A stretch of 64,000 nucleotides of DNA from Dehalococcoidia bacterium (GCA_965262725.1 OZ253555.1:1477256-1541255); one strand, 5' to 3'; positions 3,480-40,596 are shown, counted from the first letter of the stretch. Numbers and translations: made by a program. The notes: a model not told the origin generated them from the sequence alone.

Positions 3480-4143
3480 GCCGTATCAGCATCCGTGGCG
3501 ACCCGCCCAAGGCGCAAGCAGATCCTCACTCTGGACCGCCGCCTGGAGTGTCGCCGAGTTGGTAGGTCTGTCTTCGTTAACGTAGAGGGCGCCGGTGATG
3601 ATGCTGCAATCCCATTCTGTCGGGCGTTGCCGTCGGCAGCCCCGGCGCCGCGCTGACGTCCAGCCGTCTCGCGCACATACTCTAGTCGGGCGCGGTCGCA
3701 TCGAGAGCCGGCGCACCGTCCGCGGAGGCCTGAAGGGATGACGGGCGCGCTCAGGAGCGCCCTGTTGTACGCCGCGGAGCCGTAGGGGCGGACGTCCCGC
3801 GGCGGGAGGGGCCGACGACTGCGAGGCGCACCCGGCGCCACGCGCCGCGGCCGGTGAGTGCCGCCCACGCCTGCGAGGGCGAGTCAGGTTCGGAATCGCG
3901 ACCCTCCGTCACCTGCGTGGTCGCCGGGTTGGTCAGCGCGATCGTGACTCTCGTGCCGTCGTTGTCGGTAACGGTGACCGCCGCGGAGCCGGGCGTCCCT
4001 CCCGCGCCGTGTCCGGGTCGCGTTCCAGCCACACGCCCCCGTCCGAGGTCGTGATTCGCCCCATGCCGCGGGGCTTGACCAACTGATCGAGTGCGATGGT
4101 CAGGTTCGCCGAATCGGGGTGTTCGGGTGCGGGAGATGGGATC

Positions 4144-7356: not shown

Positions 7357-8349
7357 TTACTCGTCGCGACCTGTGTCGCGGTGGGTCACGCGTATCTCAC
7401 CTGACATGATGCGCGGTAGCACCAAGTCCCGACCACCGGCCAACGTGCGCGAGAGTTCCGAACTCGAATCTGACGATGCATAGAGGGGATCGGCTAGGTT
7501 CGCGAAACCAAGGAGTACAGACTCAGGTGGGACCACCACTGGTTGTGTCTTGAGATCCCGCTGGGTTATCAGTGGCTGAGTTGAACCGCGGTTCAAGTTA
7601 GACAGGTCCATTTCGCGGACGACTCCAAAGAGCCAGGCGAACTCGGGGTTGCCTCTGGGAATGATGACTAGCGTGTTATCTGACGGCCACACAGGGAAGT
7701 TGACACGGTGTACGACCCCGAGAGTGCCGACGCGTCCCGTGATTATGATGGGGAAGTCAAAGCGCGCGTCCGTGGTGTACGCCATTGCTCCCGCGCCCCC
7801 GAAGACAGGGACGTCGGCCTCGACCCCAGGGCACGAATGCCGTTGCTCCGGTCGCTTCCCACTGAAGATGTCAGCCACGTCGCCCAGCGTTTTCGCCTCC
7901 CACCCCGCCGGTATCTCCCCCAGCTCTGATGTCTCGAACGATGCGGGGAACAGCGCGTCGAGGTTGGGAAGGAGGCCCGAGGACCGACCCTCGGCCTTCG
8001 CGCGCACTGGGTCGAAGTCCACGAACCACGACCGAAACAGCGACCGCGCCATCTCTTCGAGGGTCTCGCTCATGCGCCGGTTCATCTCGATCCGGTCGTC
8101 GAGCGCGCCGAGCACGCGCGCGATGGCGCGCTGCTCGGCGAGGGGCGGGAGGGGGAGTTCGACGAGGCCGATGTCCGCCTTCCTCAGTCCGAATCGGGTC
8201 ACACCGTTCGCGTATGCGTGAAACTGCTGCTGTACTCCTCGTGTCTTGAGCGTATAGAAGAGATATGTGCCGTCGATCTCCCGCTTGGCGCGGAGGATCG
8301 CGAGATGGTAGCCACACAGGAGGTTCGGGAGATTCTCCCGTACCAGTGC
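7357..8349 (-). pseudogene. hsdS: hsdS 3' fragment (conserved central region, second target-recognition domain and C-terminus). Separated from its 5' part by an IS5-family insertion.
   Basis: The 7357..8202 track ORF extends in-frame up to a stop at 8482-8484. From codon A(8349-8347) onward it reads LVRENLPNLLCGYHLAILRAKREIDGTYLFYTLKT...GLVELPLPPLAEQRAIARVLGALDDRIE, the canonical HsdS TRD end plus conserved spacer. Sequence 8350-8481 in the same frame is IS-derived read-through. Confidence 0.85.
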
Positions 8350-9565
8350 TGGAACCCCTATGTCGTCATGCGCCTCCGAGTCCTTAGGGCAAGTCTGGAC
8401 AAGTGGGTCTGGCGGCGCAAAACGGGCGCGAGGAGCGCTTCTCGCGGGCGGGTTCGATGAAGTGAGCCATGTTCGGCCCTCTCAGGGCCCCTGCGGCTTC
8501 CCGTCCTCGCCTCTCTGGGGCGAGGTGGGCACACTCCACCCACGGTCAGGCACAGTGCGGCTTTGCGGTGAGCAGATTATGGACCCCCAGCAAGACCGCA
8601 CACCGCTCGTGGTTCTTGAAGAGGCCCCGGTACCGCACCTTGGCGTAGTCGAAGCGCCGCTTCACCGTATAGAACGGGTGCTCCACCAGCGCCCGCGCCG
8701 ACGCCTTCCGTTTCTCCTCGACGGCCTCAGGACTCTCCGGGTCGAGCTGACGCCGTAGGCCCGGGCGCATCGCCACGTTCCAGTTGTCGACCCCCGAGTC
8801 CGCGTTCTCGGGTCGCTTGTCCACGCCCCGGTATCCGGCATCGCCGTAGACTTCGGCTTCCTCGCCGTGCAGCAGACGGTACGTCTCCGACACGTCCGAC
8901 ACGTTCGCAGGCGTCGTCGTGAAGCTGTGGACCAGGCCCGTGTCCCTGTCCGCGCCGATGTGCAGCTTCATCCCGAAATACCACTGGTTGCCCTTCTTGG
9001 TCTGATGCATCTCGGGGTCCCGCGCCCGCTCGCGATTCTGCGTCGACGACGGCGCCGAGATGATGGTCGCGTCCACGATGCTGCCCTCGCTCAGCTTCAA
9101 TCCCTCGCTCGCAAGGTGCTCGTTGATGAGCTCGAAGATCCTGCTCCCCAGGGAGTGGCGCTCGAGCAGGTGACGGAATGTGAGGATGGTCGTCTCGTCG
9201 GGGATCGGCCCGCGCAGGGTGAGGTGGCAGAAGGCTCGCACCGACTCGGCCTCGTGGAGGAGGTCCTCCGTGCCGGGGTCGCTGAGGTTGTAGCAGAGCT
9301 GCACGATGTGGATGCGCAGCATCACGGAGAGAGGGTAGGGCCTCCGCCCGCGGCCGGGTTTCGGGTAGTGGGGCCCGATGGCTGCTTCGAACCTCTCCCA
9401 CGGGACGAGGCCGTCCAGCCGCTCGAGGAACTTCTGGCGGCGCGTCGTGTAGCCATCCTGCTCGAACTCGACCCTGGCGAATGTGGGCTGATGCATGGCA
9501 CGCTCCCATCCCTGTTACGCGTCAGGATCTCACCTGATCAGCAGAGTGCGCAATACTCTGCTGTC
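8350..9565 (-). mobile_element. IS5-family (IS5-group) insertion sequence, 1216 bp, inserted into hsdS with a 4-bp target duplication GTGC (8346-8349 and 9566-9569).
   Basis: Joining the flanks after removing one GTGC copy restores an uninterrupted HsdS reading ...GDVIITKGALGKLA|LVRENLP... The transposase ATG lies 70 nt from the right end, as in IS5. No clear terminal inverted repeats could be found by eye. Confidence 0.8.
8546..9496 (-). CDS. IS5-family DDE transposase (InsH-like), 316 aa.
   Basis: RRPYPLSVMLRIHIVQLCYNLSD, DATIISAPSSTQN, KKGNQWYFGMKLHIGADRDTGLVHSFTTTPANVSD and C-terminal KRRFDYAKVRYRGLFKN parallel IS5 InsH. Confidence 0.9.
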   Translation of the reverse strand: MHQPTFARVEFEQDGYTTRRQKFLERLDGLVPWERFEAAIGPHYPKPGRGRRPYPLSVMLRIHIVQLCYNLSDPGTEDLLHEAESVRAFCHLTLRGPIPDETTILTFRHLLERHSLGSRIFELINEHLASEGLKLSEGSIVDATIISAPSSTQNRERARDPEMHQTKKGNQWYFGMKLHIGADRDTGLVHSFTTTPANVSDVSETYRLLHGEEAEVYGDAGYRGVDKRPENADSGVDNWNVAMRPGLRRQLDPESPEAVEEKRKASARALVEHPFYTVKRRFDYAKVRYRGLFKNHERCAVLLGVHNLLTAKPHCA

Positions 9566-10130
9566 GTGCCAACTTTCCCAGAGCTCCCTTAGTGATGATC
9601 ACATCGCCCTCGTAGAGAGAGCACCTGCTGATCTCGCGATCGGTAGCGGTCGCGGGCATGAAGGCCATGTCCGCATAGATGAAGTCGTAGTTATACACGT
9701 CCGTGTAGTTGCAGAGCAGAACCGGACGCTCGCCGGCCTTCGACTTCTTGTCGACACTGCTGAGCGTGAGTTCCACGACCTCGCCGAGAGCCACCGCCGG
9801 CCACTCAGCGTCCCGTGGAGCTTCCTGCATCACTACGCAGTCCGACTCGATCGCCTCACGGAAGCCGTCCGCGATGGAGTGCCAGTCGACCACGTCCACC
9901 CGCATGGGCAGCCGGGACTCTTCGAAGGCCTCCTTGAGCCGAGCGAGAGCCCCGCGTGGTAGCGGCCCCTCACCGACGACGGCCAGGTCGAGGTCCGAGT
10001 AGTCCTTCGCGTTCCAGATCGCCCGGGATCCGAATGCTCGCACCTCGCACGCCGGCACATGCTCGGCCAGGATGCGCGCGACGATCGCCAGATCGGGGGG
10101 GCTGAGGTCAACCGAGACCTTCACTCCCAC
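9522..10130 (-). CDS. Minimal nucleotidyltransferase (MNT/MntA-like antitoxin, aa 1-100) reading in-frame, without a stop, into the hsdS 5' fragment (HsdS aa 1-88; first TRD N-terminus), then into IS-derived sequence up to the stop at 9522.
   Basis: NTase motif AFGSRAIWNAKDYSDLDLAVVGEG. From M101 (ATG 9830-9828) it reads MQEAPRDAEWPAVALGEVVEL...GDVIITKGALGKLA, a typical HsdS N-terminus with the GDxLxxxxGxxGK TRD motif. The HsdS part ends at 9567; codons 9566-9525 come from the IS. Confidence 0.7.
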   Translation of the reverse strand: MGVKVSVDLSPPDLAIVARILAEHVPACEVRAFGSRAIWNAKDYSDLDLAVVGEGPLPRGALARLKEAFEESRLPMRVDVVDWHSIADGFREAIESDCVVMQEAPRDAEWPAVALGEVVELTLSSVDKKSKAGERPVLLCNYTDVYNYDFIYADMAFMPATATDREISRCSLYEGDVIITKGALGKLARQQSIAHSADQVRS

Positions 10131-10543
10131 GCCTCTCCGGTAAGAGCCCCGTGGAGCTGGACGGCGTCCGACACGAACTCCGGCATGACCGCGATGGCAT
10201 TCGCCGCCTTCGCCCTGTCGTAGTCATGGGTCGTGTCGATCCGTGTCTGGATGTAGCGCTCCCACTGCCGACCCCCGGCCGCCAGGAGACCGTTCTCGTC
10301 AGCCATCCGGAAGACAGGCCTAGGGCTGTTGGGAACCTCGACGATGCCGAGCGACTCGACCAGATGGCGCCGGAGCACCTTCCACAGCACGTCGTAGCAA
10401 GTCTCGAAGCGCTGAATCACCGACTCGGCCATGGCCTCGTGGACGAACGACGGATAGTCCGGCGACAGATGCAGCAGGTGCGCGTGCTGCATCTCCAGGT
10501 TCTTCAGTGACTTCCGGAAGTTTCCGTAGTCGATCGCCATCTT
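10121..10543 (-). CDS. HEPN-domain protein (nucleotidyltransferase substrate-binding / HepT-like toxin family), partner of the downstream MNT.
   Basis: Rx4HxY HEPN motif RIDTTHDYD. Overlaps the MNT start by 10 nt, a typical toxin-antitoxin operon arrangement. Likely start is the ATG at 10543 (MAIDYGNF...); the track ORF begins 13 codons further upstream. Confidence 0.7.
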   Translation of the reverse strand, partial: KMAIDYGNFRKSLKNLEMQHAHLLHLSPDYPSFVHEAMAESVIQRFETCYDVLWKVLRRHLVESLGIVEVPNSPRPVFRMADENGLLAAGGRQWERYIQTRIDTTHDYDRAKAANAIAVMPEFVSDAVQLHGALTGEAWE

Positions 10544-10627
10544 GTTTGCGCCGCCTCTGGTCCGATCCGCCTCGACCGCCATTCTAGGACCCGGAGCGCG
10601 GGGCGGTGATGACGCGGCCCCTCCGTA

Positions 10628-15572: not shown

Positions 15573-15790
15573 CGAGAAGCCCTCCGGGTTGTTCTGCAGC
15601 ACTCATGGGGTGTCGTGCCAGGAGCACTGATCCATTAGGCCGTCGCAGGAACCAACCCGCCGGGTCGCACGAGCAGCGCGAAGCGGGAGAGGAACTGAGA
15701 CACGATGGCCTTGTACCTGGGCGGAGGTACTGGAGCTGCCACGGACCTGAGGACTGGCACCGGGCCATCGCCGCGGAAGGGGGTGAGCTG

Positions 15791-16603
15791 GTGTGGGAGG
15801 ACCCGCTCGCCGAGCTGCCTCGTCGGAGTAATAGCGCGGATTGGGACGCAAGCCTGGGCGGAGTGAGCCCAGACGGCCAGACGCTGGTGGCGCATGTCTG
15901 CGAGCGAGGAGTCTGTTGGGAGTTCGATCGCCCGCCGAGCGAGGATGCAGTAGAGGGGCTCTGGGCTTCTGTCGACGGGGGCGAGACGTGGGAGAGGTGG
16001 GGCGACTTCCCGAAGGGGCTGGTGCGGGAGTGGGTCTCGGTCGTGACGGAGGAGGATGTCGTTGTCTTCTCGCCCTCGGACGCAACTGACGCGTACCGGG
16101 CGTGGTGGTTCCGCTCGGGGGAGGACATGGCGCCGCCGGAGGGCATCGACCACCCGCGCATCCTGGGGTGGCGCACCGGCGGAGACGCCCCCGAGCCCAT
16201 CTGGGAGGATGGCGACGGCACCGTCGCTGTCTCTGCCTCCGGTGATGATCTTCCCAGGCCTCCCGGCTATTCGTTCGCGATCCCCCTTCCCGACGGCTCG
16301 ATGCTGTGGAGCGAGGTCACATTGCGCCATGGGAACCGGGAGAGGCCGGGGGCGCGAGACCTCGTCCTTTACCTGAGCGACCAGGGCGAAACCGTGTGGG
16401 CGTATTCGTGGGACGGGCCGCGCTCGCTTGTGCTGATCGGCCACGTGGAAGGGCAGCTCTTTGCGGGATTCCTCGGAACCTGGTCATGCGGGGACGGAGT
16501 GGACGCGGTCCTGGTGGACCTGGGGTCGCGCTCTCTCCATACCCTCCTCGGGATCGAGGGGGGCACCGTTGTTCCCTTCGCGGCGCGGCCGGCACCCGAC
16601 TAG
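15791..16603 (+). CDS. Hypothetical protein (~270 aa), Trp/Asp/Glu-rich, no recognised domain.
   Basis: Long ORF with non-repetitive composition. A GTG at 15791 is preceded by SD GGAAGGGGG. The track ORF starts at 15605, but its first 60 codons are Arg-rich. The overlapping minus-strand ORFs are Pro/Ser/Arg-rich artefacts. Confidence 0.5.
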   Translation: MWEDPLAELPRRSNSADWDASLGGVSPDGQTLVAHVCERGVCWEFDRPPSEDAVEGLWASVDGGETWERWGDFPKGLVREWVSVVTEEDVVVFSPSDATDAYRAWWFRSGEDMAPPEGIDHPRILGWRTGGDAPEPIWEDGDGTVAVSASGDDLPRPPGYSFAIPLPDGSMLWSEVTLRHGNRERPGARDLVLYLSDQGETVWAYSWDGPRSLVLIGHVEGQLFAGFLGTWSCGDGVDAVLVDLGSRSLHTLLGIEGGTVVPFAARPAPD

Positions 16604-17138: not shown

Positions 17139-19670
17139 CTACGCCTCCTCGAGGTCCTCGGTGAGGGCGGACGCGAGCTGCTCGCCCCCGGACTGGGAGC
17201 GGACCCCGTCGACGAGATCGAGGTCGCCGAGGCGCCGGATCGCCCGCACGAGCGGGGCGACTCGCTTGCCCGTGGGGGAGGAGAAGAGGCGCTCGATGAT
17301 CTCCTTTCCGTCACGCGAGGGCCTCCCGGAGGCACCCAGCACGGCCCGCTCCCTGGGCGTGGACCACCTCAGGACCTCGTAGAGCCAGTCCCCGAGGGCC
17401 GCGTCGTCGCCCGCTGCACCGGCGAGACCGACGTACTCGAGCGCCGGCCCCTCACGGGCCAGAGCCGCTCGCTCCGCGGTCGAGCCACCCTCCGCTGCGC
17501 GCAAGATTCCCAGCAGGCTCCGCGACTCCTCGGCGCTCGTCTGCAGTGCCCTCCCCCGCGACGGCGCGTACTCGGTCAGCCGCCCCGCGGCGGCCGCCGC
17601 AAGCGGCTCCCATGTGATATCCGGGTCCGCGCGTGAGAGCACCTCGAGCGCGCGCAGGGTCTCCCCCGGCTCCTCCGCCACGCGCTTCGCGAGCGCCTCC
17701 TCGAACGTCGGCCGGTCCGCCGGCTCGACCGAGAGCCTCGCAGCGCAGTCCTCCCAGCCCGGCAGCGCGGCGTAGGCTGCGAGGGCGTCGCAAACTCGCT
17801 CCGCGTCGCCGGACGCCCGCACCGTCAGCCACTCGAACCGGCGCAGGAGCGCGTGCGCTCCCTCGGCCCAGCCCGCACCGCCGCCTGCGTCGATAGCGAC
17901 GGCCGTCGCCCTCGCCGCGATCGCCTCCGCGTCGGCCCGGCCGACGAGCGAGAACAGATCCGCGAGGCGCGCGGCCACCGAGGGAGTCAGCGGCGGCCAC
18001 ACCTCGGCCTCGCGCCCGCCCCGGGCGAGCAGCTCGGTGACGTCTCGCCATTCGTCGTCGGGGCGGAGCTCCTCCGGGATCTCCGCAAGGCGGCTCGCGG
18101 CGAGCAGAAGGGTGGGCGGCGACGACGAGGGCACCCGCATGAACCCGGACCCGGCGAGCGCTTCCCAGAACCCCGTCCGGCCGGCGAGCTCCACGAGCCC
18201 GTCCGCCTCCTCCCGCATCAGGGAATTGTCGATGAGGGGTCCGTAGAGCAGCTGCAGCGCGCGCTCCGGAGGAGCACCGAATGCGATGGCCGCGAGATGC
18301 GCCTCGACGCGCGCATCGAGGAGAGGAGCGACGCCGGGCAGAATCGGATCCTCCCGGCGCAGGTCGGCGGCCACCTCGGGGCCCTGCTTCCGCTGGCTCG
18401 CGTAGTACGCGAGGCTCGCGATCGGGAGGTCGTGCTGCCAGCGCCGGTGCAGCGCGCCGATGCCGTTGACGTAGAGCTTCAGCTCTCGGGGACTCGGCGC
18501 CCGATCGCCTCCCGCAAGCTGGTGCTGGTAGAGGCGGTAGAGAGCGTAGTGGTCGGTGTCGTGCTCCGGGAGTGCGCGGCGCAGCAGCGAGGCGAGGTAC
18601 TCGCGCCAGTCGCTGAGCAGCAGCAGCGGCACCTCGAAGTGCACCTGGATGCTCTTGTCGAGGAAGGACTCCGCCAGCGTGCGCGGCGGTGATCCTCCCA
18701 CCTCGGGGCGGGCGACCAGGCCGTCCCACAGGCGGTCGATAGCGCCCTTGTCGTACGGCAGCAGCACCCAGAGCGAGTCGAGCCAGGGCGGGCGCGGATC
18801 GCTAGTGTGGTGCAGGAACGTCTGTAGCGTCGCCCACACCGCGCGTGCGTCCTCGGGAGCCACGCGGTCGAGGTTGTCGACGACGAGGACGAGACGTCTC
18901 GTGGGATGACCATCGAGCGCGGCGCACATGAGGTCGCCGAACTCGCGCTCGAACTCGACGGATGTCGGGTCCGGCGTCTCGACCGTCTCGCGGTCGGACT
19001 GCGTGACCGACTGCACCGAGAACAGCTCGAGCCACCGGGCGGCGGAGTCGTCCCGCCGGAGGCAGTGGGCAAGCCCCGCTACGGCGAGCGCGAAGACCGC
19101 CAGCCCGCCGAGGATCCCGGCACCCGAGCGCCAGGTGGCGGGATCGCCCGAAGAGAGCCCCGCGTTCAGCAGCGCGACGCCCGACGGCACCAGGACAGCG
19201 AAGAGGACGCCTGCCACGATGCCCGCCGGCGTGATCCTGGGCCGCGTGTGCTCGACGCGGTCCCTCCTGGAGAGGCTCTCACGCCGTTCGCGCCACTTCT
19301 TGCCGTCGACCCACTCCTTCTCACCGAGCAGGATGTCGATGAGCGTCTCGAGAAAGGAGCGGCGCAGGGGATCGCCCTCGTGCGCCCAGGCGTCGAAGAC
19401 CGCGACGCGCTCGTCCTGGCCGCTCATGCGCTCGGCGAGGAGCCGGACGACCGTGGACTTCCCGGAACCCCAGCGGCCCTCGAGCCCGATCGTGCGCCCG
19501 CCGTCCTCACGGGTGATCAGCTCATGGATGGCGGCGGCGATCGGCTCGTGCGATCCGAACTGGTCCTCGTCGACCGGCGCATCGTCGAGCGTCCACGTGG
19601 GGCACGACGCACCCGGACGCGCATCGTCAGCGATGGCGGGGCTCCTGTCGGGCGGGGAGAGGCCGGCCAT
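17139..19670 (-). CDS. KAP-family P-loop NTPase (843 aa from the ATG at 19670) with two transmembrane helices inserted in the NTPase domain.
   Basis: Walker A GLEGRWGSGKST. Hydrophobic inserts ITPAGIVAGVLFAVLVPSGVALL and ILGGLAVFALAVAGLAHCL. Walker B LVLVVDNLDR. The track ORF extends to 19982 through a (GT)n-encoding hexanucleotide repeat; that Arg/Gly/Pro-rich extension is unlikely to be coding. Confidence 0.85.
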   Translation of the reverse strand: MAGLSPPDRSPAIADDARPGASCPTWTLDDAPVDEDQFGSHEPIAAAIHELITREDGGRTIGLEGRWGSGKSTVVRLLAERMSGQDERVAVFDAWAHEGDPLRRSFLETLIDILLGEKEWVDGKKWRERRESLSRRDRVEHTRPRITPAGIVAGVLFAVLVPSGVALLNAGLSSGDPATWRSGAGILGGLAVFALAVAGLAHCLRRDDSAARWLELFSVQSVTQSDRETVETPDPTSVEFEREFGDLMCAALDGHPTRRLVLVVDNLDRVAPEDARAVWATLQTFLHHTSDPRPPWLDSLWVLLPYDKGAIDRLWDGLVARPEVGGSPPRTLAESFLDKSIQVHFEVPLLLLSDWREYLASLLRRALPEHDTDHYALYRLYQHQLAGGDRAPSPRELKLYVNGIGALHRRWQHDLPIASLAYYASQRKQGPEVAADLRREDPILPGVAPLLDARVEAHLAAIAFGAPPERALQLLYGPLIDNSLMREEADGLVELAGRTGFWEALAGSGFMRVPSSSPPTLLLAASRLAEIPEELRPDDEWRDVTELLARGGREAEVWPPLTPSVAARLADLFSLVGRADAEAIAARATAVAIDAGGGAGWAEGAHALLRRFEWLTVRASGDAERVCDALAAYAALPGWEDCAARLSVEPADRPTFEEALAKRVAEEPGETLRALEVLSRADPDITWEPLAAAAAGRLTEYAPSRGRALQTSAEESRSLLGILRAAEGGSTAERAALAREGPALEYVGLAGAAGDDAALGDWLYEVLRWSTPRERAVLGASGRPSRDGKEIIERLFSSPTGKRVAPLVRAIRRLGDLDLVDGVRSQSGGEQLASALTEDLEEA

Positions 19671-19920
19671 CGGCGTGAGAGCGAGATCATACGCCCGGCC
19701 GCGCGGGCGGCACACCAAGGGGAGGGCTCCTCCGCGCCTCCCTCGCCGGTGCGCGTGCGGCAGGGGTGAGCAGCCGGCGCTGCGCCCGGGCGAGCGAGAG
19801 GAGGCGGGCGGCCGCGGTCGCCCGCCCGCCGTACACGCCCCGGCGAGGCGCCGGCTGAGCCGCCCGCTCCGCGGGCCGGGCACCGCGCGTCGGCTGCCCC
19901 GCTCACGTCCCGATCCCCCG

Positions 19921-19968
19921 CCCGTGCCGGTGCCCGTGCCGGTGCCCGTGCCCGTGCCCGTGCCCGTG
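19921..19968. repeat. Tandem hexanucleotide repeat (CCSGTG) x8, immediately 5' of / overlapping the extended KAP NTPase reading frame.
   Basis: cccgtg ccggtg cccgtg ccggtg cccgtg cccgtg cccgtg cccgtg, read directly. On the minus strand it is in-frame and encodes (GT)8. Confidence 0.9.
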
Positions 19969-20119
19969 CCGCGAAGCCTCAACGGCGCCGGAGGACGTGG
20001 CGACCCCGTCCGTCTCAGGGCGTGCGAGGGGAGGGGACGTCACAACCGACCGCGCAGCCGGCGCGTCGGCCGGCTAGACCCAAGCCGGCTGCCGGTCCAG
20101 GGACGAGCGGCGAACTGCC

Positions 20120-20469
20120 GCGTCGGGGACGTGCCGGGCCGTGACGTCCGTGACGAGATCGAAGAACCACGAGCCAGCTCCCGGTGCGACGATCACTTCC
20201 CCGATGAGCAGGCCCAGGTCGACCCTGTCCCGGACGCCGGGGGCTTCAGCCTTGTCGTACACGAGGGCGGCAGCGTCGAAGAACTTGTGGCCTGCGCCCA
20301 GGGCCTGCACGTCACGGCGCTCTACGCGCTGGTCGAGGGCGAGTACGTCTCCTACATCCTCGGCGCGCCGCAGTTCGTGAACGAGGACTTCGCCGGGCTC
20401 TTCGCCGACAGCGTTCCCCCGCTCACGCCGTTCGTCGTCAAGAGCGAGGGGCCTCCCGCAGCCAACTGA
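20120..20469 (+). pseudogene. Possible 5'-truncated gene remnant (C-terminal ~110 aa of an unknown protein).
   Basis: The tail of the artefactual ORF 18928..20469 switches to protein-like composition: ...GGFSLVVHEGGSVEELVACAQGLHVTALYALVEGEYVSYILGAPQFVNEDFAGLFADSVPPLTPFVVKSEG. An overlapping minus-strand ORF 20074..20310 is an alternative reading. Confidence 0.25.
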
Positions 20470-20942
20470 TTTCTCCCTACAGGCCCTGCGTCCGCCGGTT
20501 CGCGATCGCGACCCGATGCAGGTTCAGCCGGGCCGCGCGGCCCGGGCGCTCTCGATAATCAGCATCGAGCGAGACACGTGCGCGCTCACCGAGGGCGTCA
20601 CTGAGCAGGTTGGACCTCTCTTTCCAGTTGAAGGACTGAAGGCGCGCGCTCAGGCGGGACACTTCTTGCTCCGCCCACGCCTGAGCATGCCGCTCCAGCC
20701 AAGCGGGCCGATGCCGCGACTCGCGTGCTGCTGACTCTCCGGGGCGGTGTACGGGGGTGCCCGAACCGCCTGACGCGTCCCCGGCATGTGAATCGCCAGG
20801 ATCTATAGACCAGCAAACGGCCAGATCGCCAGGGTCATTGATCCACTTCGCCAGGGTCATTGAGCCACCCCTCCGGGGGGTCTGACCACTCGGGCCGCCG
20901 GTACGGCCACCATCGCCTGCATCCCCAGCGGAGGGAGCAGCG

Positions 20943-22523
20943 ATGGCCTACCGGGAGGTACACGGGGTGGAGATCCAGGAGATCATTCGACGCTGGCAGG
21001 CGGGGCTCAGCCAGCGCCGCATCGCCAGCGGGATGGGGTTGTCGCGTCAGACGGTCCGCCGCTACATCGACGCGGCCGAAGCGGCCGGCCTCACACCTGA
21101 CGGTCCCGAGCCGAGTGAGGAGCAGCTCGCCGCGCTGGCGACGCTGAGCCTCTCCGGCCCGCGGCAGGTCGAGGCGCCGAGCGAAGAGCTGCTCTCGCCC
21201 TGGGCGGAGCAGATCGAGCGCTGGCTTGAGACCGACCGCCTGCAACTGACGCGCATCCAGGAGCTCCTCGCCGGACGAGGCTGCGAGGTCTCCTACACCA
21301 CGCTGCGGCGTTTCATCCGGCGCCGCGGCTGGCGCCACCGGCTGCCGTCGACCGTGCGCATGGACGACGGGCCGCCGGGCGAGGTGGCGGAGATGGACTT
21401 CGGCCGCCTCGGCTTCATCCGGGACCCCGAGAGCGGCCGCCGGCGCGCGGTGTGGGCGCTGGTCGTCGTCTGGCGCTACTCACGCCACTGCTTTGTGTGG
21501 CCCACCACCAGCCAGACGCTGGACGCTGTGATCGAGGGCCTGGAGGAGGCCTGGGCCTTCTTCGGGGGCGTGCCGCGCTACCTCGTCATCGATAACTTCC
21601 CGGCCGCCGTCGCCGGGGCCGACGCGCTGCACCCGCGCTTCACGCGGGGCTTCCTCGAGTACGCCCGCCACAGAGGCTTCATCACCGACCCCGCGCGCGT
21701 GCGTCATCCCCGCGACAAGCCGCGCGTCGAGCGCAGCATCCCCTACGTGCGCGAGCGCCTCTTCAAGGGCGGCGACTTCCGGGACGTCGTCGACCTGCGC
21801 TCCGCCGCCCGCAGCTGGTGCCTGGAGGTGGCGGGACAGCGCATCCACGGCACGACCCGCCGCCGGCCGCTCGAGGTCTTCCGGGAGGAGGAGCTCCCTC
21901 TCCTCGCTCCCTGGGACGGCGAGCCCTACGAGGTCCCCGACTGGCGGACCGCCACGGTCCATCCCGACCACCACATCGCCTGCCAGTACGCGCTGTACTC
22001 GGTGCCGTCCACGGCCTGCCCGCCCCGCCAGAAGGTCGAGGTGCAGCTCGGCTCGAAGCTGGTGCGCATCTACCACCGCGGTCAGCTCATCAAGGTCCAC
22101 CCGCGCCAGCGCCGGGGCGGCCGCGCCACCGACCCGAACGACTACCCGGCCGAGCTCACCCCCTACACCAGGCGGGCGCCCGACTGGATACAGCGCCGCG
22201 CCGCCGAGCTGGGGGAGGCCGTGGGCGCCTACGCCGAGCGTCTCTTCGAGGGCTCCCTGCCCTGGGCGAAGCTCCGGCAGGGCCACAAGCTGCTGCGCCT
22301 CGCCGAGCGCTACTCCCCGGACCGCCTCGACGCCGCCTGCCGCCGCGCGCTCGAGGTCGACCTCATCGACGTGCGCCGCCTCGAGCGCATCCTCGTCCGC
22401 GCCCTCGACCAGGAGAGCACCCCAGACCAGCCCGAGCTGCCGCCTCCTCCGGGGCGCTTCGCCCGCTCGGGCTCCGTCTTCGCCCAGTCCCGCACGCAGA
22501 CCCCGACAGGAGCACCACGATGA
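20943..22523 (+). CDS. istA: IS21-family transposase IstA (HTH plus DDE integrase core), 526 aa.
   Basis: N-terminal HTH (LSQRRIASGMGLSRQTVRRYI). rve-type catalytic region. IstA-typical length and IstA-IstB ATGA overlap. Confidence 0.9.
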   Translation: MAYREVHGVEIQEIIRRWQAGLSQRRIASGMGLSRQTVRRYIDAAEAAGLTPDGPEPSEEQLAALATLSLSGPRQVEAPSEELLSPWAEQIERWLETDRLQLTRIQELLAGRGCEVSYTTLRRFIRRRGWRHRLPSTVRMDDGPPGEVAEMDFGRLGFIRDPESGRRRAVWALVVVWRYSRHCFVWPTTSQTLDAVIEGLEEAWAFFGGVPRYLVIDNFPAAVAGADALHPRFTRGFLEYARHRGFITDPARVRHPRDKPRVERSIPYVRERLFKGGDFRDVVDLRSAARSWCLEVAGQRIHGTTRRRPLEVFREEELPLLAPWDGEPYEVPDWRTATVHPDHHIACQYALYSVPSTACPPRQKVEVQLGSKLVRIYHRGQLIKVHPRQRRGGRATDPNDYPAELTPYTRRAPDWIQRRAAELGEAVGAYAERLFEGSLPWAKLRQGHKLLRLAERYSPDRLDAACRRALEVDLIDVRRLERILVRALDQESTPDQPELPPPPGRFARSGSVFAQSRTQTPTGAPR

Positions 22524-23293
22524 CCGCCACCACCTCAGACCTCCGCCCGCTGCTCAAGCGCCTCAAGCTCGGCCGTATGCTCGACACCCTGCCCGAGCGC
22601 ATCGCCCTCGCGCGGCGCGACCACCTCGACTACGCGGACTTCCTGCAGATCCTGCTCGTCGACGAGGTGAGCCGCCGCGACCACGGGCGGTTGGAGCTGC
22701 GCCTGCGCCAGGCCGGCTTCGAGCAGCTCTGCCGCCTCGAGGACTTCGACTGGGCGGCCGCCATCCGGCTCGACCGCCGCCTGCTCGACGCCGCCTTCTC
22801 GCTGCACTTCCTCGATCGCCGCGAGCACGTCCTGCTCGTCGGCCCCGTCGGCGTCGGCAAGAGCTTCTTAGCCCAGGCGCTCGGCTACTCAGCCGTCCGC
22901 TCCGGACGCAGCGTCCGCTTCGCCCCGGCCGACCACTACTTCCGCGAGATGGCGCAGGCCCGCGTCGACCACTCGGCCGAGAAGGTCTTCCGAAGCTTCC
23001 TCGCGCCCGACCTGCTCATCCTCGACGACCTCGGGCTCCATCGCCTCAGCGCGCAGCAGTCCATCGACCTCTACGAGCTGGTCATCGGGCGCCACCGCAG
23101 CTCCAGCTTCGTCATCACCTCGAACCGCGCCGTGGAGGAATGGCTGGGTCTCTTCGACGACCCGATCCTCGGCAACAGCGCCCTCGACCGCCTCGCCAAC
23201 GCCAGCTACCAGATCGTGATCGAGGGCGATAGCTACCGCCAGCGGCTCTCGCCGCACCGCGCCCTGCTCGAGGCGCAGACGGGAGGTGATTGA
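22520..23293 (+). CDS. istB: IS21-family ATP-binding helper IstB (DnaC-like AAA+), 257 aa.
   Basis: Walker A LVGPVGVGKSFLA. Walker B LLILDDLG. The start ATG overlaps the istA stop (ATGA at 22520-22523). Confidence 0.9.
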   Translation: MTATTSDLRPLLKRLKLGRMLDTLPERIALARRDHLDYADFLQILLVDEVSRRDHGRLELRLRQAGFEQLCRLEDFDWAAAIRLDRRLLDAAFSLHFLDRREHVLLVGPVGVGKSFLAQALGYSAVRSGRSVRFAPADHYFREMAQARVDHSAEKVFRSFLAPDLLILDDLGLHRLSAQQSIDLYELVIGRHRSSSFVITSNRAVEEWLGLFDDPILGNSALDRLANASYQIVIEGDSYRQRLSPHRALLEAQTGGD

Positions 23294-23485
23294 CGCGCTA
23301 GACGCTCACTGATATCAAGCCGCCTACCGGCGTCCCGGGTGGTCTAATGACCGTGGCGACGCGTGGCTCAATGACCCTGGCGATCGACACGGCACTATGT
23401 TGGCACGTATAAATTCACATAGATTCACGTCTAATTCACTGACAGTAGGCCGACAACCGGTCAGAATCCCATCTCGTTACGGGCA

Positions 23486-23800: not shown

Positions 23801-23852
23801 CTAGCGCATCCCTATCTCACGAAGTCCATCGCAGTGCGAGCGGATTGCCCAA

Positions 23853-26558
23853 GTGACGAGTCTGCTGCGGCTTCTCGATCCGAACGAGCCTGACTCGGCG
23901 GCGCGAGCTGCCGGGGCTGTCGCCGCCCTGCTCGACCGCCTGCCGTCACCACGCTCAATCGCCGAACTTCGTCTCGGGCCGGAGGACGTTGAGTGGCTGC
24001 GAGTGTGGGCGGGCGGGATGTCCGCTGCAGCGGCGAGGTGGAGCGGCGACCGGCGGCTCCTGGGCGACCTGGGGGCCGCGCGCCAGCAGGCGTTCGGGCT
24101 GGTCTTCCTCGCACTCGCGGCTGAGACGGCGCGGCGGGATGCGGCCGAGGGGCACGTGTGGGGCCCCGTCCGGCGCCGCGTATCCAGCGCGGCCGCCTCG
24201 ATGCTCTTCAGTCAGGGGCAACCGAAGCAAGCGCTCAAGGACGCGCTGGAGTCCGCGTGCAGGCGCTGGCAGTTGCGGCATGTCTTTGGAGAGGAAGGCC
24301 TGCAAGCCTGGTACGCCTCGGTCTACCTTCAGTTCGGGTTCACGGAACGGACCATCGAGTCGCGACTGCCGGCGCGGCTTGCGAATGCCGAAGCGCTGCC
24401 CATAGCGGTTCACCACCTGCTCCACGACCGGAGACTGAAGTCCGACTCGTTCGCGTCCCTCTGGAACACCCTTATCGGTGTGCGCCGTCGCAACGTATCG
24501 GACTTGAGAGCCCGCCAAGTGCTTGCGGGGAGCCCGTGGATTCTGCCGGAGTGGACTGACGCGCTCCTCGAGGCTGCCGTGGCGCGCATGGAGTTGACGC
24601 CGTCGGGCCTGTCCGATGAAGAGGTTGCGCCCTCGCTCTTCACCGTTCCGCGTCTGGAGTGGGTCGGTCAGCAACCGCGCTTCATCGCCGAACTGGTCAA
24701 CCTTGCCGACGTCGCCGGCGAGTTGGAGCCGGGTGCCTACCGATTGCGGGCCGGCACGGTCAGCGTGGAGTTCACGATCGACGACCTCGGCACCCCTCAC
24801 GGCCTGCGCCCGGTGGGACTTCCACTGTGGCCAGCCCGGCTCACCGCCACAGTTGAGCAGCACCACGGTGAGGACTCATGGGATCCCGTCGCTGGCGAAG
24901 AGATGGTCCTGTGGGAACCCTCCGACGAAGTCGCCGCCTTCCGCGACGACGGGTTCCCGCTGGACGCCTGGAGCACCGCGCTGCACCCAAATCAGCCCTA
25001 CACACTCGTGCTTGCACCGGGACTCGACGTCAAGCCCGTCCAAGACCGTTGGGCGCATGCGGATGGATGCCTCGCGGTCCAGTTGCCGGCTGGCTGGGCG
25101 GAGGATACGGGCGTGTACCTCGATGGCGAGAGAATCTGGGATCCGCTCGTCACCGCCGATGGCCAGAAGACGCTTGCTGGGCTGTCTATGCCTCCCGCTG
25201 GCACGAGGCTGGGTGAAGCACCGAGGATTCAGTTGTTCGGCCTGTCGGAGCGGGTCACTGAAGTAAAGGCCGATCGGCGTGCAGTGGCCTTCGAGCAGCA
25301 CGGGGGGAGCATCGAAGCGTTCCTTTCCCCCGGCGAGCACGCCGCCCGCCCCTCCGTGCTCGTCCGCACCAAAGACGCAAGCGGAGAGGTTAGGGCGGGG
25401 CGGATTCAGCTCACCTGGTTCGGGGCCCAGCACCTTCGCCCGTACGGCTGGGCGCCGTTCCCGGTCGGTGTGATCGATGAGCGCGATCTCGGTCAGCGCA
25501 TCCGCGCGTTCGCGCCGGAGTGGCGTGAGCCGACATTGCTGGTTGGCAACCGTCCGATCGGGCGGATCGGCAGCCGCGGTCGAGCACGGGGCTCGGTGGG
25601 AGCGTGGGGCGCGCCGCTTCTCATCGCCGATGGGCAGTTCAATCGCGAGCCCGACCGCCAACTGCTGCTGGCCGATGCCATCACGTCTCGCGGCGTCATC
25701 CTGGACATGAACGATGACGACTTCGGAGGCGCGGCCCTGGTCACCCTCCGGCAGCCCGTCAACCTCGGCGAGGTCAGAGTCTTCGGCATCGATCGCGGCG
25801 GCGCTGTCGACGACATCCGGCCCACCCCAACGGGTGAGCGGTCGTGGGTGATCGAGGTGCCTCCAGAGAACGCCCTGGCGATCGTCTACGGGGAGGAATG
25901 GATTGGGGGGTGGTGGTGGCGGCCCCCCGTACCGCCCCAGTCGGCCGAAGGTGCCGTTCACCTGATAAGGCTGCTGCGCGACGCGCGGGCTCCGCTGCTC
26001 TCGCGTGACTATGGCGGTTGGGCGCGGGGAGCGCTGCGCGCGCACCCCGCCAGCGCGCTCGTCTGGCTCTTCAACCTCAGCGAAGCTGGAACGCTCTCCG
26101 CCGCGCCGCCGGAATCAGACGACTTCGCTCCAGTGGTTCGCGACCTGCTCGACGGATGGGAGCCGGACCACATATGCGTCGCTCACCTTGCCCGAACTCT
26201 GCGTGACTCAAGCGAGGAGTTCATCGAAGGGCTCGCCGACACTGCTCTGCGAGCGCCGGGCCCGACCGCACGCCTGCTCAGTTCAGTCTTCGAGGACTCG
26301 GGGCTCCGGCGGCGTGTCCGCGGAGCCCTCCTTGAGGCGCTTGGTTGGGGAGACGCATCGAGCGCCGGCGTGCTCAATGAGATCGGATGGCAGTTCGATG
26401 TGGACAGCGGGTTCCTTGAACGTCTCGGGCGGTTAGCGAACGATGGGTTGCGCGGGCAACCGATTCCCCGCGTGCAGCGGCAGAATCTGCTCGTGGCGAT
26501 GAACCTGAGCGGCGACTTTCGGCGGTGGCTCGCCGGACGCCTGATCTCGGAGGACTGA
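23853..26558 (+). CDS. druH: Large (901 aa) protein with no recognisable domain: a DruH-like partner of the downstream DUF1998 helicase (Druantia type III-like architecture).
   Basis: GTG start at 23853, stop at 26558. Composition is non-repetitive and Trp-rich. No known motifs were recognised. The stop lies 4 nt before the SD/GTG of the next gene. Confidence 0.8.
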   Translation: MTSLLRLLDPNEPDSAARAAGAVAALLDRLPSPRSIAELRLGPEDVEWLRVWAGGMSAAAARWSGDRRLLGDLGAARQQAFGLVFLALAAETARRDAAEGHVWGPVRRRVSSAAASMLFSQGQPKQALKDALESACRRWQLRHVFGEEGLQAWYASVYLQFGFTERTIESRLPARLANAEALPIAVHHLLHDRRLKSDSFASLWNTLIGVRRRNVSDLRARQVLAGSPWILPEWTDALLEAAVARMELTPSGLSDEEVAPSLFTVPRLEWVGQQPRFIAELVNLADVAGELEPGAYRLRAGTVSVEFTIDDLGTPHGLRPVGLPLWPARLTATVEQHHGEDSWDPVAGEEMVLWEPSDEVAAFRDDGFPLDAWSTALHPNQPYTLVLAPGLDVKPVQDRWAHADGCLAVQLPAGWAEDTGVYLDGERIWDPLVTADGQKTLAGLSMPPAGTRLGEAPRIQLFGLSERVTEVKADRRAVAFEQHGGSIEAFLSPGEHAARPSVLVRTKDASGEVRAGRIQLTWFGAQHLRPYGWAPFPVGVIDERDLGQRIRAFAPEWREPTLLVGNRPIGRIGSRGRARGSVGAWGAPLLIADGQFNREPDRQLLLADAITSRGVILDMNDDDFGGAALVTLRQPVNLGEVRVFGIDRGGAVDDIRPTPTGERSWVIEVPPENALAIVYGEEWIGGWWWRPPVPPQSAEGAVHLIRLLRDARAPLLSRDYGGWARGALRAHPASALVWLFNLSEAGTLSAAPPESDDFAPVVRDLLDGWEPDHICVAHLARTLRDSSEEFIEGLADTALRAPGPTARLLSSVFEDSGLRRRVRGALLEALGWGDASSAGVLNEIGWQFDVDSGFLERLGRLANDGLRGQPIPRVQRQNLLVAMNLSGDFRRWLAGRLISED

Positions 26559-26562
26559 CGTA

Positions 26563-29500
26563 GTGCCGGGGAAGCTGGACTCACTCGGGCTCGCGGAGTC
26601 GCTGCGGCGACGAATGGCCGACTTCGCGTCGGCGGACCTGTACGTGACGGACCCCGAGATTCAGCGCGCCGCCGGGGCCGTATGGGAGGACGAGGAGTCG
26701 GGGCTGGTTGGCGAACTGTGGGTCGAGGGGATCATGCCGCCAATGCCCGGTCAGCGCCTACAGAAGATCGCGGAAGCGGGCGGGTTCGACCAAGACTTGC
26801 TCGGGCGCCTGACGGAGTCTGGCGCTTGGGGCGACTGGCGGCTTCACGAGCACCAGGAGCGCGCCATTCGCGCTGCCTCGAGCGATCTAGGCGGCGCCGT
26901 CATGGTTTCTGCGGGCACTGGCGCTGGGAAGACGGAGAGCTTCCTGTTGCCGCTCGTCGACCGGCTGTGGAGCGCGCCTCGCCGCGGTTCCGGCATGCGC
27001 GCGCTCATCCTCTACCCCATGAACGCTCTCGTCCGTGACCAGATGGATCGCCTTGATGCGTGGCTTGGCGGTCAGTCCCGGCTCACCTATTTCCACTTCA
27101 CGAGCGAGACACCCGAGACTGAGTCCGAGGCGGACCGGCGTGGGATAGCGAAGCAGTTCGCGAGCCGCGTTCGATCGCGGGACGAAGCGCGGCGCGCTCC
27201 TCCCGACATCTGCGTGACGAACTACTCGATGCTCGAGTACATGCTCGCTAGGCCGCAGGACGCACCATTCTTCGGCGAGGGGCTCGAGGTCGTCGTCCTC
27301 GATGAGGCGCACCTCTACACGGGGACGCTCGCGAGCGAGATCATGTTCCTGCTGCGCCGGGTGCTGCTCCGCTGCGGACTGACCGCGACGGACATCCTGC
27401 ACCTCGCAACGTCGGCGACGCTCGGCGGCGACGACGACGAACTGCGGGCGTTCCTCTCCCAGCTCACGGCCACGCCGCCCGGGCGCGCCTGCGTCATCCG
27501 GGGGCGACCTCAGCCGTCCGCGCCGCTGCCTGCGTCAGGCAGCGACCAACGTGCCGGAGCACTCGTGCAGCTCGATGGTAGGCTCCCTTCCAACGCTGGT
27601 GGGACCGATGTGTTGTCAATACTGGGGGCGGAGACTGACGACGACTCCGACGCGCCGATCGTGCTTGGTCGGCGGTTGGCGGACTGGCCCGCCACGGAGC
27701 GCCTGCGGTCCGCCCTGCACGCCGAGCCTGGAGTGCCACACCTTCTAGTCGAACTCGCCGAGAAGGTGTGGCCTCACGGCGGCAAATCGAATGTCGCTGC
27801 CACCGCCGCTCTGCTGCGCTGGACGTCAATAGCTCAATCGGGGCCGGACGCTCCGCTGCTCGCGCATCGGCTGCATCTGCCGCTGCGCGGCCCTGGCGGG
27901 TTGGGCCTCTGCCTCAACGGCGACTGCTCAGGCCCCGAGGAACGGCAGAAGACCGGATGCGGCGCTGTCCAGGATGCCCGTGGCGACCGATGCCGCTGGT
28001 GTTCCTCTGTCGTCCTGCCGATCGCGCGCTGCGAGGGCTGCGGGCTCGTGGTGCTCACCGCGCGGCAGCAACACGCGAGATTCGTGCCGGAACCCGTTCC
28101 TGGTCGCGGTACGAGGCGAACCGCGATGGAAGTGCGCGGCTTACTGCTCGGGTTCGCCGACCCTGCACCGGGGGCGGTGGAAGTGCTCCCGGACGGTTCG
28201 GTGGGAGGCGGAGGCGTGCGCCTGCGCCCCCTGCCGCCGCTCGATGCTGACACGCCGTACGAGACGGGCTGCGCACACGAATTATTCGAGCCGCTCGCGC
28301 GCGGCGCCGGGTTGCTGCTGAGCGTGATCGCCGAGACATCTCTCGCCGCTATGCCGCCGGACAGCGACCCCGATCGCGCCCGCACGCGGCCCGCCGGGGG
28401 CAGGCGGCTGCTGGTGTTCAGTGACAGCCGCCGGGAGGCTGCCCGGCTCGGGCCGGCGCTCACCTGGGGCCATGAGGTGCAGCTAGTTCGGGCGGAGATC
28501 CTGCGGCTGATGGACGCTGCATCCCCGGACGATGTGTCTGCAACCCGCGAGTACCTCAAGTCTGACATTGCTCGCCTGCAGAATCTGCTGGAGCGGGATC
28601 CCCCATCATCGACGCGCCAACTCATCGAGCGGGACTTGGCTGACCGGGTGACGGACCTACGGGCGCACATCCTGGGCGGGCCCATGCACGACTGGGAGCG
28701 CGCCTTGGCCCGTTCGGACAAGCTCGCTGAGATCCTGTCGTTTGACGGGGCGAGCATCCACCGGCGGGCCGAGTGGAGTGACGAGTCGTGGAGCGAGAAT
28801 CACCGGGCGAACGGCAGGCGCGCCCGCGCGTTGCTGGCGCGTGAGTTCGTCGCCCCACCCGGTCGGAGCGCCGGCGCGTCGCTCGAGGCGCTGGGGCTGG
28901 CGCTCGTGGACTATCCGGAGCTGCGTGAACTGCCGCCGCCAACGCTCGGCCAGTTGCCGAGTACGATCCGCGAGCGTGCGGTCGAACAGTGGCCCCAGTT
29001 CGTCGCAGCCCTGCTCGACTCGCTTCGCGTTGACGGCGGGATTACAACGGGCGAACAGGAACTCGACGACTACTACTCCGAGGACCATGCGCCGATCGGA
29101 AAGTGGATCAGCTTCGAAGGCCCGGACCGGCGCGACCGCGCCCGGTTCCGCGGCGCCACCTCGCGGCACAGGCGGAATGCCTTCCTCATCCGATTGCTGC
29201 TCGACTTCGGCGCGACGGGCGAGCAGCTGGATGAGTTCGAGCCGTTGCTGGCGCGCGCCGCCTTCGACTGGTTGCGAACCGCGGAGCCACGCCCCGAGTG
29301 GCTGGAGCGCCACCAGACCGAGCCCTGGTTCCGCGTGCGGTTCCCCGATCTCGCGCTGCGCAGGCCGGACGAGGTCTGGCTGGACGAGAGCCGCCTCATC
29401 GTCGGGTTCGTAGTGAATGGCCGCCATCCGCGGGGAACCGGCCGCTTCGTGCAGCGGAGGCAATCCGAGCTTGACGCCGATCCCCGCTTCCAGCGCCTGC

Positions 29501-37367: not shown

Positions 37368-37383
37368 CGGGTGCCTCCTGTGG

Positions 37384-39018: not shown

Positions 39019-39144
39019 ACTCCTCTTCCCTCGCTCCGGGAGTCATGCAGTCACCCGAGCGTAGGTCCTGGATGGGTCGGGGGTGGTGTCCCCATGTTCT
39101 TTGTCAAGGGCCAGCGCCACTGATCCGGGATGGCCGGCGCAGCG

Positions 39145-40361: not shown

Positions 40362-40596
40362 TGCAACTCCTTCCGGGGTTTCCCCCTCATTCCAGCAGGA
40401 AGGCCGCAGGCGCGCTCGCCGTCATCCACCTTACAAATCAGCGATTGGCTCGCATGTCCCCATCAGAGGTTCACGCGCCGAACAGTGCCGGTGGCAACAC
40501 CACCCGAGCCGTCCGTTGCGGCAGGGCCATTTGAGCCATGCCGGCACTGCTGGGCTTCCCGGGCTCAGAGGTTACTGAGCTCGTTTGAAGAAGGTA

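Follow-up and report, generated by a model that had tools for sequence, protein, structure and literature searches.

A 64,000-nucleotide (nt) stretch of DNA from a Dehalococcoidia bacterium (GCA_965262725.1, OZ253555.1:1477256-1541255; hereafter the window, whose coordinates are used throughout) carries a gene for a KAP-family P-loop NTPase, and a tandem array of hexamers stands upstream of it. Does this array encode part of the protein, does it tune the expression of the gene, or is it foreign to both, and what may the protein do? By analogy with KAP proteins of established function, we lean on balance towards the reading that positions 17139-19715 encode a single-polypeptide, membrane-anchored KAP protein of antiphage (conflict) function, and that the array is a non-coding, lineage-specific microsatellite with no shown tie to expression.

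The extent of the gene was judged against three close relatives from public assemblies, which were reached via the proteins P0002, P0032 and P0121; exact searches with the 843-aa and 859-aa forms gave no contig. L083 (P0121) is 98.4% identical to the window over 3.5 kb of nucleotide sequence and its gene is intact; L002 (P0032; 96% nucleotide identity) has a truncated gene and L001 (P0002; 94%) a frameshifted one. With the window this makes four alleles in total, the three used for comparison being low-coverage metagenome contigs with frameshifts. When the upstream DNA is aligned, all four alleles share the GTG at 19715 and the Shine-Dalgarno-like sequence ahead of it (Table 1). The TTG at 19718, from which the 100% identical public protein P0001 was called with 859 amino acids (aa), is a CTG in all three close relatives. 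Likewise, the ATG at 19670, which would start the 843-aa form of the original prediction, reads ACG in each of them, and that form is not upheld. Since the GTG and the GGAGG are conserved and neither the TTG nor the ATG is, comparison of the alleles best supports a product of 858 aa, from 19715 to 17139, whose numbering is used below. This open reading frame (ORF) is unbroken in the window and holds every residue that is invariant in a 35-sequence alignment of the family. The ratio of nonsynonymous to synonymous substitution rates (dN/dS) is about 0.5 against L083 and L001, and hence the gene is still under constraint. On the other hand, a TATGAT is found inside the predicted first 10 codons. 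It is the sole TANNNT hexamer on either strand between 19600 and 20300, that is, the sole -10-like hexamer within 700 nt, and an ATG follows 15 nt past it in the window allele only. The conservation of this hexamer within the predicted first codons makes the exact N-terminus less certain, and the sites at which transcription and translation of the KAP gene start are uncertain as well.

Upstream of the GTG the frame remains open, and the original prediction had noted that the extended ORF would translate the array as (GT)8, possibly as an N-terminal tail. The ORF that it described does exist: spanning 17139-19982 on the minus strand, it would give 947 aa from a TTG, with a translation starting MRLRGTGTGTGTGTGTGTGTGGG. 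As the 6-nt unit keeps the frame, the tail of such a product could vary in length by slippage. However, the guanine-cytosine (GC) content by codon position over 19716-19982 is 0.73/0.88/0.87, against 0.76/0.53/0.89 in the gene, the second position being the most discordant, and it is coding-like in no frame on either strand. The relatives carry indels of about 274, 128, 66 and 2 nt within the extension, mostly non-triplet and differing from one relative to the other; therefore, no reading frame has been kept there. In public annotations, the protein and the relatives nearly identical to it start downstream of the repeat, and more distant homologues, from other clades, begin 10-15 residues ahead of a conserved CPTxTxDDAP motif. 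In the AlphaFold2 model, the predicted local distance difference test (pLDDT) score is about 30 already at residues 1-35 of the 858-aa form. At the GC content of this DNA, frames often stay free of stops over long distances. Altogether, the extended ORF is not coding, and the (GT)8 tail is spurious, the product of GC-rich DNA in which a frame stays open over a long distance. A genuine 947-aa product from TTG 19982 is already contradicted by these data, and we give it practically no credence. The repeat can be called in-frame in the trivial sense that no stop intervenes; its supposed place in the 5' coding region does not hold, given that some 205 nt separate it from the start codon downstream.

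The protein itself agrees with the earlier description of a KAP NTPase with Walker A and Walker B motifs and two intradomain transmembrane helices. Pfam assigns it to KAP_NTPase (PF07693) with an E-value of 6.6e-19 and 68.7 bits, against a cut-off of 20, over profile positions 2-289 of 293. Kyte-Doolittle averages in 19-residue windows peak at 2.38 (aa 165-183) and 2.20 (aa 201-219), and a pair of hydrophobic peaks stands between the two Walker motifs in 35 of 35 aligned homologues. AlphaFold2, supplied with the 35-sequence alignment, returned a model of mean pLDDT 81.9 comprising a P-loop core, a helical hairpin (helices 163-189 and 192-219) and a helical C-terminal region. Based on these profiles and on the model, the hydrophobic segments inserted within the NTPase domain are predicted to form a transmembrane hairpin. 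Its flanks are Arg-rich on both sides and its connecting loop has 13 residues, as read from the sequence; from the flanks it follows that both halves of the NTPase should be cytoplasmic. Transmembrane helices that interrupt the NTPase domain between the two Walker motifs were reportedly described for KAP NTPases by Aravind et al. in 2004 (cited in PMC13001434). Among solved structures, Foldseek placed RdrA, the ATPase of RADAR, first (E-value 3e-4), followed by ORC/Cdc6 and NOD2, all to the NTPase part, and the C-terminal part matched ARM repeats of beta-catenin at an E-value of about 1e-2; the TM-scores of these matches are all about 0.2. A sequence search of solved structures gave generic P-loop matches only, and in a fold search of viral models the best match was a KAP-family protein (E-value 2.9e-5). 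Neither Pfam nor Foldseek revealed an enzymatic effector domain in the protein, and the helical C-terminal region is presumed, by analogy, to be the sensor.

This C-terminal region is that of one KAP subfamily. An exhaustive HMMER search with residues 420-858 in 1.84 billion proteins retrieved 145 representatives, 23 of them at an E-value of 1e-10 or below. The matches fall almost only at positions of about 400-830 in proteins of KAP-family length, many of which had already turned up as KAP homologues, and most span the first 200 residues only. The distal half of the region thus diverges fast. Most homologues with 50-58% identity are longer and reach about 1110 aa through an additional segment of about 270 aa at the C-terminus. 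We considered the window gene as a truncated long form and rejected this idea, as no remnant of the extension was found downstream of the gene and P0004 and P0005 end where the window protein ends. Judging from these sequences, it and its nearest relatives are a clean short form of about 850 aa. Among the candidates scored, about 900 database homologues reach an E-value of 1e-5 or below; the family is commonest in metagenome-assembled genomes (MAGs) of Dehalococcoidia and other Chloroflexota and is scattered over many phyla. One Dehalococcoidia MAG, OZ244720.1, encodes two paralogues of the family (L008 and L014, 64% and 51% identical to the window protein).

How does the protein compare with known defence systems? 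The original prediction held that the roles of KAP NTPases are poorly defined, a statement that has been overtaken by work of 2025-26 in which stand-alone KAP NTPases with uncharacterized C-terminal regions protect Enterococcus faecalis from phage (PMC13552941; preprint PMC12632615). Protection of the EF_KAP type requires the Walker B motif and the C-terminal region, and is not abortive-infection-like (PMC13552941). Like EF_KAP and three KAP proteins from gut metagenomes, the window protein is a single polypeptide that combines a KAP domain, membrane helices within this domain and a large C-terminal region devoid of known domains, and it is likewise encoded alone in a mobile or defence neighbourhood. 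Unlike it, the EF_KAP-type proteins come from Firmicutes, and their C-terminal regions, 322 aa long in EF_KAP, differ from that of the window protein and are mutually unrelated. Moreover, the model of EF_KAP places one helix at the N-terminus and another inside the domain, whereas in the window protein a hairpin of two helices is combined with an alpha-solenoid of about 460 aa that belongs to a mostly Chloroflexota family; the two are set side by side by description. In each respect that the sequence lets one check, the window protein behaves as a KAP-family member, and its architecture appears to be that of the stand-alone KAP defences.

Other systems share part of this design. PifA, which mediates the abortive exclusion of T7 by the F plasmid, is also a single-protein KAP NTPase, and its PADLOC model matches the window protein with an E-value of 7.1e-17. 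This match covers aa 34-160 of an 843-aa query and model positions 15-146 of 720, the C-terminal regions of the two proteins being unrelated; the identification as PifA was rejected, since the model matches the P-loop region only. In the passages that PMC13001434 devotes to it, PifA acts at the membrane, causing depolarization and nucleotide leakage upon T7 infection, and is reported without transmembrane helices. QatA is a KAP-type ATPase too (PADLOC E-value 3.1e-15). The window protein was not accepted as a QatA, because it scores 55.1 bits against the NCBIfam model NF041923, whose cut-off is 600, and qatBCD are not near: no domains of qatB, qatC (QueC-like) or qatD (TatD-like) were found among the KAP neighbours. 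Tmn has two transmembrane helices within a P-loop NTPase; it is a single-gene membrane defence that senses a phage protein and raises its ATP turnover (PMC13001434). It shares with the window protein the insertion of two helices and differs from it in the P-loop family, which is KAP and not YobI in the window protein according to Pfam, and in the lack of a large accessory domain. Finally, RdrA of RADAR and the STAND NTPases resemble the window protein in having an NTPase followed by a helical-repeat sensor, RdrA being the best match among solved structures. They differ from it in the low TM-scores and in having no membrane hairpin, and RdrB, the deaminase partner of RdrA, is absent here.

On the analogy of PifA, EF_KAP-type proteins and STAND NTPases, and of Tmn as an analogue from another family, the helical C-terminal solenoid would recognize a phage component. 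Nucleotide-dependent oligomerization at the membrane would come next, and the hairpin or the membrane itself might then serve as the effector. The output could be membrane permeabilization, ion export or another effect, among which the sequence does not decide.

The surroundings of the gene fit the stand-alone KAP in a defence island that had been described. On one side lie HsdR, HsdS, HsdM, an MNT/HEPN-like pair, McrB, McrC and a convergent ORF; on the other side are an IS21-like element and, beyond it, a Druantia type III system with DruE (PADLOC 5.5e-188). Clustering of the neighbours in 53 related loci revealed no conserved neighbouring gene, the commonest being type I restriction-modification (R-M), present in 7 of the 53. 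The neighbours in relatives include PhdYeFM/PIN, SieB, Mrr, Eco57I, AbiEii, HicAB, HEPN/DUF499 and many transposases. PADLOC, applied to 88 neighbouring ORFs from 30 loci, called mad2 (8), MTase_I (6), MTase_II (4) and MkoA (3). The DUF2971-like gene that lies upstream of KAP on the same strand in L001 and L002 (about 250 aa) was rejected as an operon partner: apart from these two alleles and a remnant in the window, it is found in none of 80 other loci. The homology between L001 and the window ends at the KAP stop codon. L083 has about 940 bp downstream of the stop in common with the window, and the upstream junctions differ between the window, L083 and the pair L001/L002. Because near-identical copies have different flanks, the KAP gene appears to behave as a one-gene cassette. 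Upstream of KAP in L083, at about 3900-4050, the opposite strand has a stretch (GGTTCGAATCC...CACCA) similar to a tRNA 3' half. ARAGORN calls no tRNA there, and the stretch may be a remnant of an attachment site.

As for the repeat, the eight tandem hexamers first noted are present, far beyond chance expectation. Tandem Repeats Finder delimits the array as 19920-19970 (period 6, 8.5 copies, 91% matches), and its score of 88 is the highest in the 64-kb window. In dinucleotide-preserving shuffles, 0.01 matches to the four-unit pattern are expected, and none of 100 shuffles reaches the six observed. At the same position, L002 has CACGGG CGCAGG CACGGG and L083 has CGCGGG CGCAGG CACAGG, that is, three degenerate units and 30 nt fewer than the window in either case. 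L001 is without any unit: a segment of 274 bp that includes the repeat site (about 19780-20053 in the window) is absent from it. The copy number thus differs among related strains, and a change between three and eight units is of the kind that slipped-strand mispairing would give, as the original prediction had anticipated. It has changed recently, given that the relatives with three degenerate units are 96-98% identical to the window in the gene. The simplest history from these alleles would be that a three-unit proto-repeat expanded to eight near-perfect units in the lineage of the window while the gene diverged by less than 2%. The expansion is most simply attributed to replication slippage, and the sub-periodicity of the array at 12 and 18 nt is consistent with one or two units having slipped or been duplicated. 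An assembly error is an unlikely source of the 30-nt difference, which is clean and accompanied by substitutions in the units. The 274-bp segment is edged by a near-identical direct repeat, with 17 of 20 nt shared around GCAGCCGGCGC. Its insertion as a miniature inverted-repeat transposable element was discarded, as no terminal inverted repeats are seen at its ends in the alignment, and a microhomology deletion in L001 is more likely. Comparable repeats were not found in the 900 bp upstream of any of 58 other loci encoding KAP relatives. A search for further alleles in JGI metagenomes gave no match to a 24-mer flanking the repeat and nine matches to an 18-mer from the 5' end of the gene, none of which was homologous to the locus. 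In summary, the array is best read as an ordinary neutral or nearly neutral microsatellite that is not part of the protein. The segment that holds it is dispensable, because L001 keeps the gene without it.

Could the spacer still hold a control element? A consensus scan, which for promoters covered sigma-70-type sites only, found neither a promoter nor a terminator match in it, and its 358 nt contain no TANNNT hexamer on either strand. Upstream of the GTG, the four alleles have just about 25 nt in common; therefore, no upstream promoter shared by them is possible. A structured RNA, riboswitch or tRNA was also considered for the spacer and rejected: Rfam gave no match, no tRNA was found, and with a z-score of +0.42 the RNA folds no better than shuffled sequence. 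The DUF2971-like gene beyond the spacer was recognized by tblastn (Table 1), the Pfam match to DUF2971 being weak (18.4 bits against a cut-off of 22). Next to this remnant, 20242-20469 on the plus strand holds the 3' part of an ORF, in which the terminal ~90 residues look protein-like (GGFSLVVHEGG...GAPQFVNEDF...) and match no family. The stretch 20241-20447 is 76% identical, in inverted orientation, to positions 20-226 of L083, which adjoin an AbiEii-like gene.

The original prediction also suggested that the repeat could act through promoter spacing. Accordingly, the locus might be a contingency locus, in which slippage of the hexamers changes the promoter or 5' leader of KAP in spacing or topology and yields cells with different levels of this membrane defence protein, which may be costly. 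Eight and three units in alleles whose genes are 96-98% identical speak for this, and so does the lack of any other sizeable simple-sequence repeat in the 64 kb. There is precedent as well: upstream repeats that do not shift the frame grade expression, such as the 7-bp repeats upstream of hmw1A/hmw2A in Haemophilus influenzae, and phase-variable R-M systems are common. Like those loci (the hmw repeats; mod, hsdS), the window has a short tandem repeat of varying copy number beside a conflict gene. In the known cases, however, the repeat is located inside the ORF, or between or beside promoter elements that have been mapped, and expression has been shown to change, whereas here it stands ~205 nt from the start codon, outside the ORF, in a dispensable spacer where the sigma-70-type scan detected no promoter-like elements. 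Furthermore, L001 keeps the gene without the segment, the degenerate three-unit tract of the relatives would slip poorly, and 0 of the 58 related loci has a comparable repeat. An effect on promoter spacing is therefore doubtful, and we regard a contingency locus as unlikely. The array might instead work as a G-quadruplex element of the form G3N3G3N3G3N3G3 on the sense strand of KAP, with an i-motif-capable C tract opposite, which could impede or modulate transcription arriving from upstream. The motif GGGCACGGGCACGGGCACGGG (19945-19965, minus strand) is one of only eight canonical motifs (G3+N1-7 x4) in the window, both strands counted; G4Hunter scores on the plus strand reach -1.36 across the array, the 99th percentile of the window being 1.28; and the three-unit alleles lack four consecutive G3 runs. 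Nevertheless, this is a motif match only, such motifs arise easily in a spacer of 82% GC, and the motif is not conserved, so that we deem a quadruplex role very improbable. A combined scenario, in which the recent expansion from three to eight hexamers created a slippage-prone, quadruplex-capable expression dial, or contingency switch, for a costly, abortive-type KAP defence and may compensate for the lost upstream gene and promoter, strikes us as rather improbable.

Other alternatives concern the gene itself. It could be a decaying passenger, left without a promoter by the rearrangement at 20241 and the nearby IS21 and on its way to becoming a pseudogene, with the repeat and the indels as neutral debris. 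The truncated DUF2971-like gene upstream, the absence of a detected promoter, the truncated copy in L002 and the frameshifted one in L001, a fairly relaxed dN/dS and a neighbourhood dense in insertion sequences (IS), where hsdS is disrupted, would all agree with decay. Yet the 858 codons of the window ORF are unbroken and hold all invariant residues, L083 is intact as well at 98.4% identity, a dN/dS of 0.5 rather than 1 denotes constraint, and errors of low-coverage assembly may account for the frameshifts in L001 and L002. Decay is accordingly unlikely, although slightly less so than the other alternatives. It is also conceivable that the protein assembles or regulates a membrane signalling complex and sits in the island by chance. 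As the relevant passages of the cited sources put it, KAP NTPases were first proposed as regulators of membrane-associated complexes, and Kidins220/ARMS is a eukaryotic signalling scaffold (PMC13552941, PMC13001434); the lack of a recognizable effector domain would suit such a role. Against it, the family is patchy across phyla, one genome holds two copies, near-identical copies have different flanks, and the gene recurs beside R-M, toxin-antitoxin and IS genes. A role outside defence thus seems to us hardly probable. Several points do weigh against a functional KAP defence gene preceded by a neutral array. The loss of the DUF2971-like gene may have removed the original promoter, and the KAP gene could be silent; the repeat might, though improbably, act as an expression dial or quadruplex element; some of the indel differences could be assembly errors; and, since PADLOC matches PifA and QatA in the N-terminal P-loop part only, homology to defence proteins of proven function is confined to the NTPase.

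Read as a membrane-anchored KAP defence protein with a microsatellite upstream, the locus would add a mostly Dehalococcoidia/Chloroflexota family to the newly validated single-gene KAP phage defences. This family is marked by an alpha-solenoid C-terminal region of its own, of which mainly the first half is conserved, and occurs in short (~850 aa) and long (~1110 aa) forms. The protein would be a reasonable candidate to learn how a P-loop domain split by a hairpin couples sensing to a membrane effect. The repeat, in turn, provides a clear small case of microsatellite birth in a bacterial intergenic spacer. To see in it a coding (GT)n tail or a promoter switch is to over-read it, and it constitutes no evidence for phase-variable immunity.

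Table 1. Features at and around the KAP gene, in window coordinates
Feature	Position	Strand	Remarks
KAP-family P-loop NTPase gene	17139..19715	-	858 aa from GTG 19715-19713; stop codon 17141-17139; Pfam PF07693
C-terminal all-helical (ARM/HEAT-like) region	17142..18518	-	aa 400-858, ~460 aa; AlphaFold2 pLDDT mostly >90
Walker B, VLVVDNLDR	18864..18890	-	aa 276-284; D280, N281, L282, D283, R284 invariant in 35-sequence alignment
Predicted two-helix transmembrane hairpin	19059..19229	-	aa 163-219; between Walker A and Walker B
Walker A, GRWGSGKST	19452..19478	-	aa 80-88; G83, G85, K86, T88 invariant in 35-sequence alignment
TATGAT, -10-like hexamer	19686..19691	-	inside predicted first 10 codons; same in 4/4 alleles
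Non-coding spacer	19716..20073	-	358 nt, 81.6% GC, indel-rich; from the stop of the upstream gene remnant to the KAP start
Shine-Dalgarno-like GGAGGAG	19727..19733	-	~11 nt upstream of GTG 19715; GGAGG(A/G)G in 4/4 alleles
Imperfect palindrome	19771..19857	.	22-nt arms 19771-19792 and 19836-19857; inner hairpin 19803-19830; mostly absent in L002, L083
Hexamer microsatellite	19921..19968	-	(CACGGG)4 CACCGG CACGGG CACCGG CACGGG; eight perfect CACSGG units
DUF2971-like gene remnant	20074..20241	-	last 55 codons + stop; tblastn 91% over 55 aa; cut off at 20241
IS21-like element	20787..23420	+	IstA 20943-22523, IstB about 22520-23293 (Pfam); TGTGAAT-type terminal repeats; between KAP and Druantia III
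Mobile elements	8546-9514, 20787-23420, 36585-40386, 45560-46645, 47731-48699, 51557-52714		

Further observations were made in the rest of the window. Mobile elements are dense, with transposase genes of two IS5-like, two unrelated IS21-like, one IS110 and one IS630-like (DDE_3) element, plus an RVT_1 reverse transcriptase. In the type I R-M operon (7357-10627, minus strand), hsdS appears to be interrupted by a DDE transposase gene of IS5-like type (8546-9514). The N-terminal piece of HsdS is accompanied by an MNT nucleotidyltransferase (9522-10223) and a HEPN-like NTase_sub_bind protein (10121-10627), located between hsdM and hsdS. DruE (26545-31686, plus strand; DruE3 5.5e-188) is preceded by a 917-aa ORF (23805-26558) that has no match in Pfam, PADLOC or NCBIfam and is probably a divergent DruH of Druantia type III. 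The convergent ORF at 15605-16603 (plus strand, ~330 aa) matches nothing in the same three collections; its 3' part (16201-16603) falls within the block that is 98.4% identical in L083, where a 200-aa gene is found (L083 7239-7841). The window AroA is closest to that of a Dehalococcoidia MAG, at 77%, and the host is probably an uncultured member of this group. At the locus of P0005, a KAP protein with 64% identity, there is, 3 kb downstream, a gene for 217 aa and behind it one for 454 aa that matches QueC weakly (L094 13348-15362); this pair might be QatB/QatC-like.

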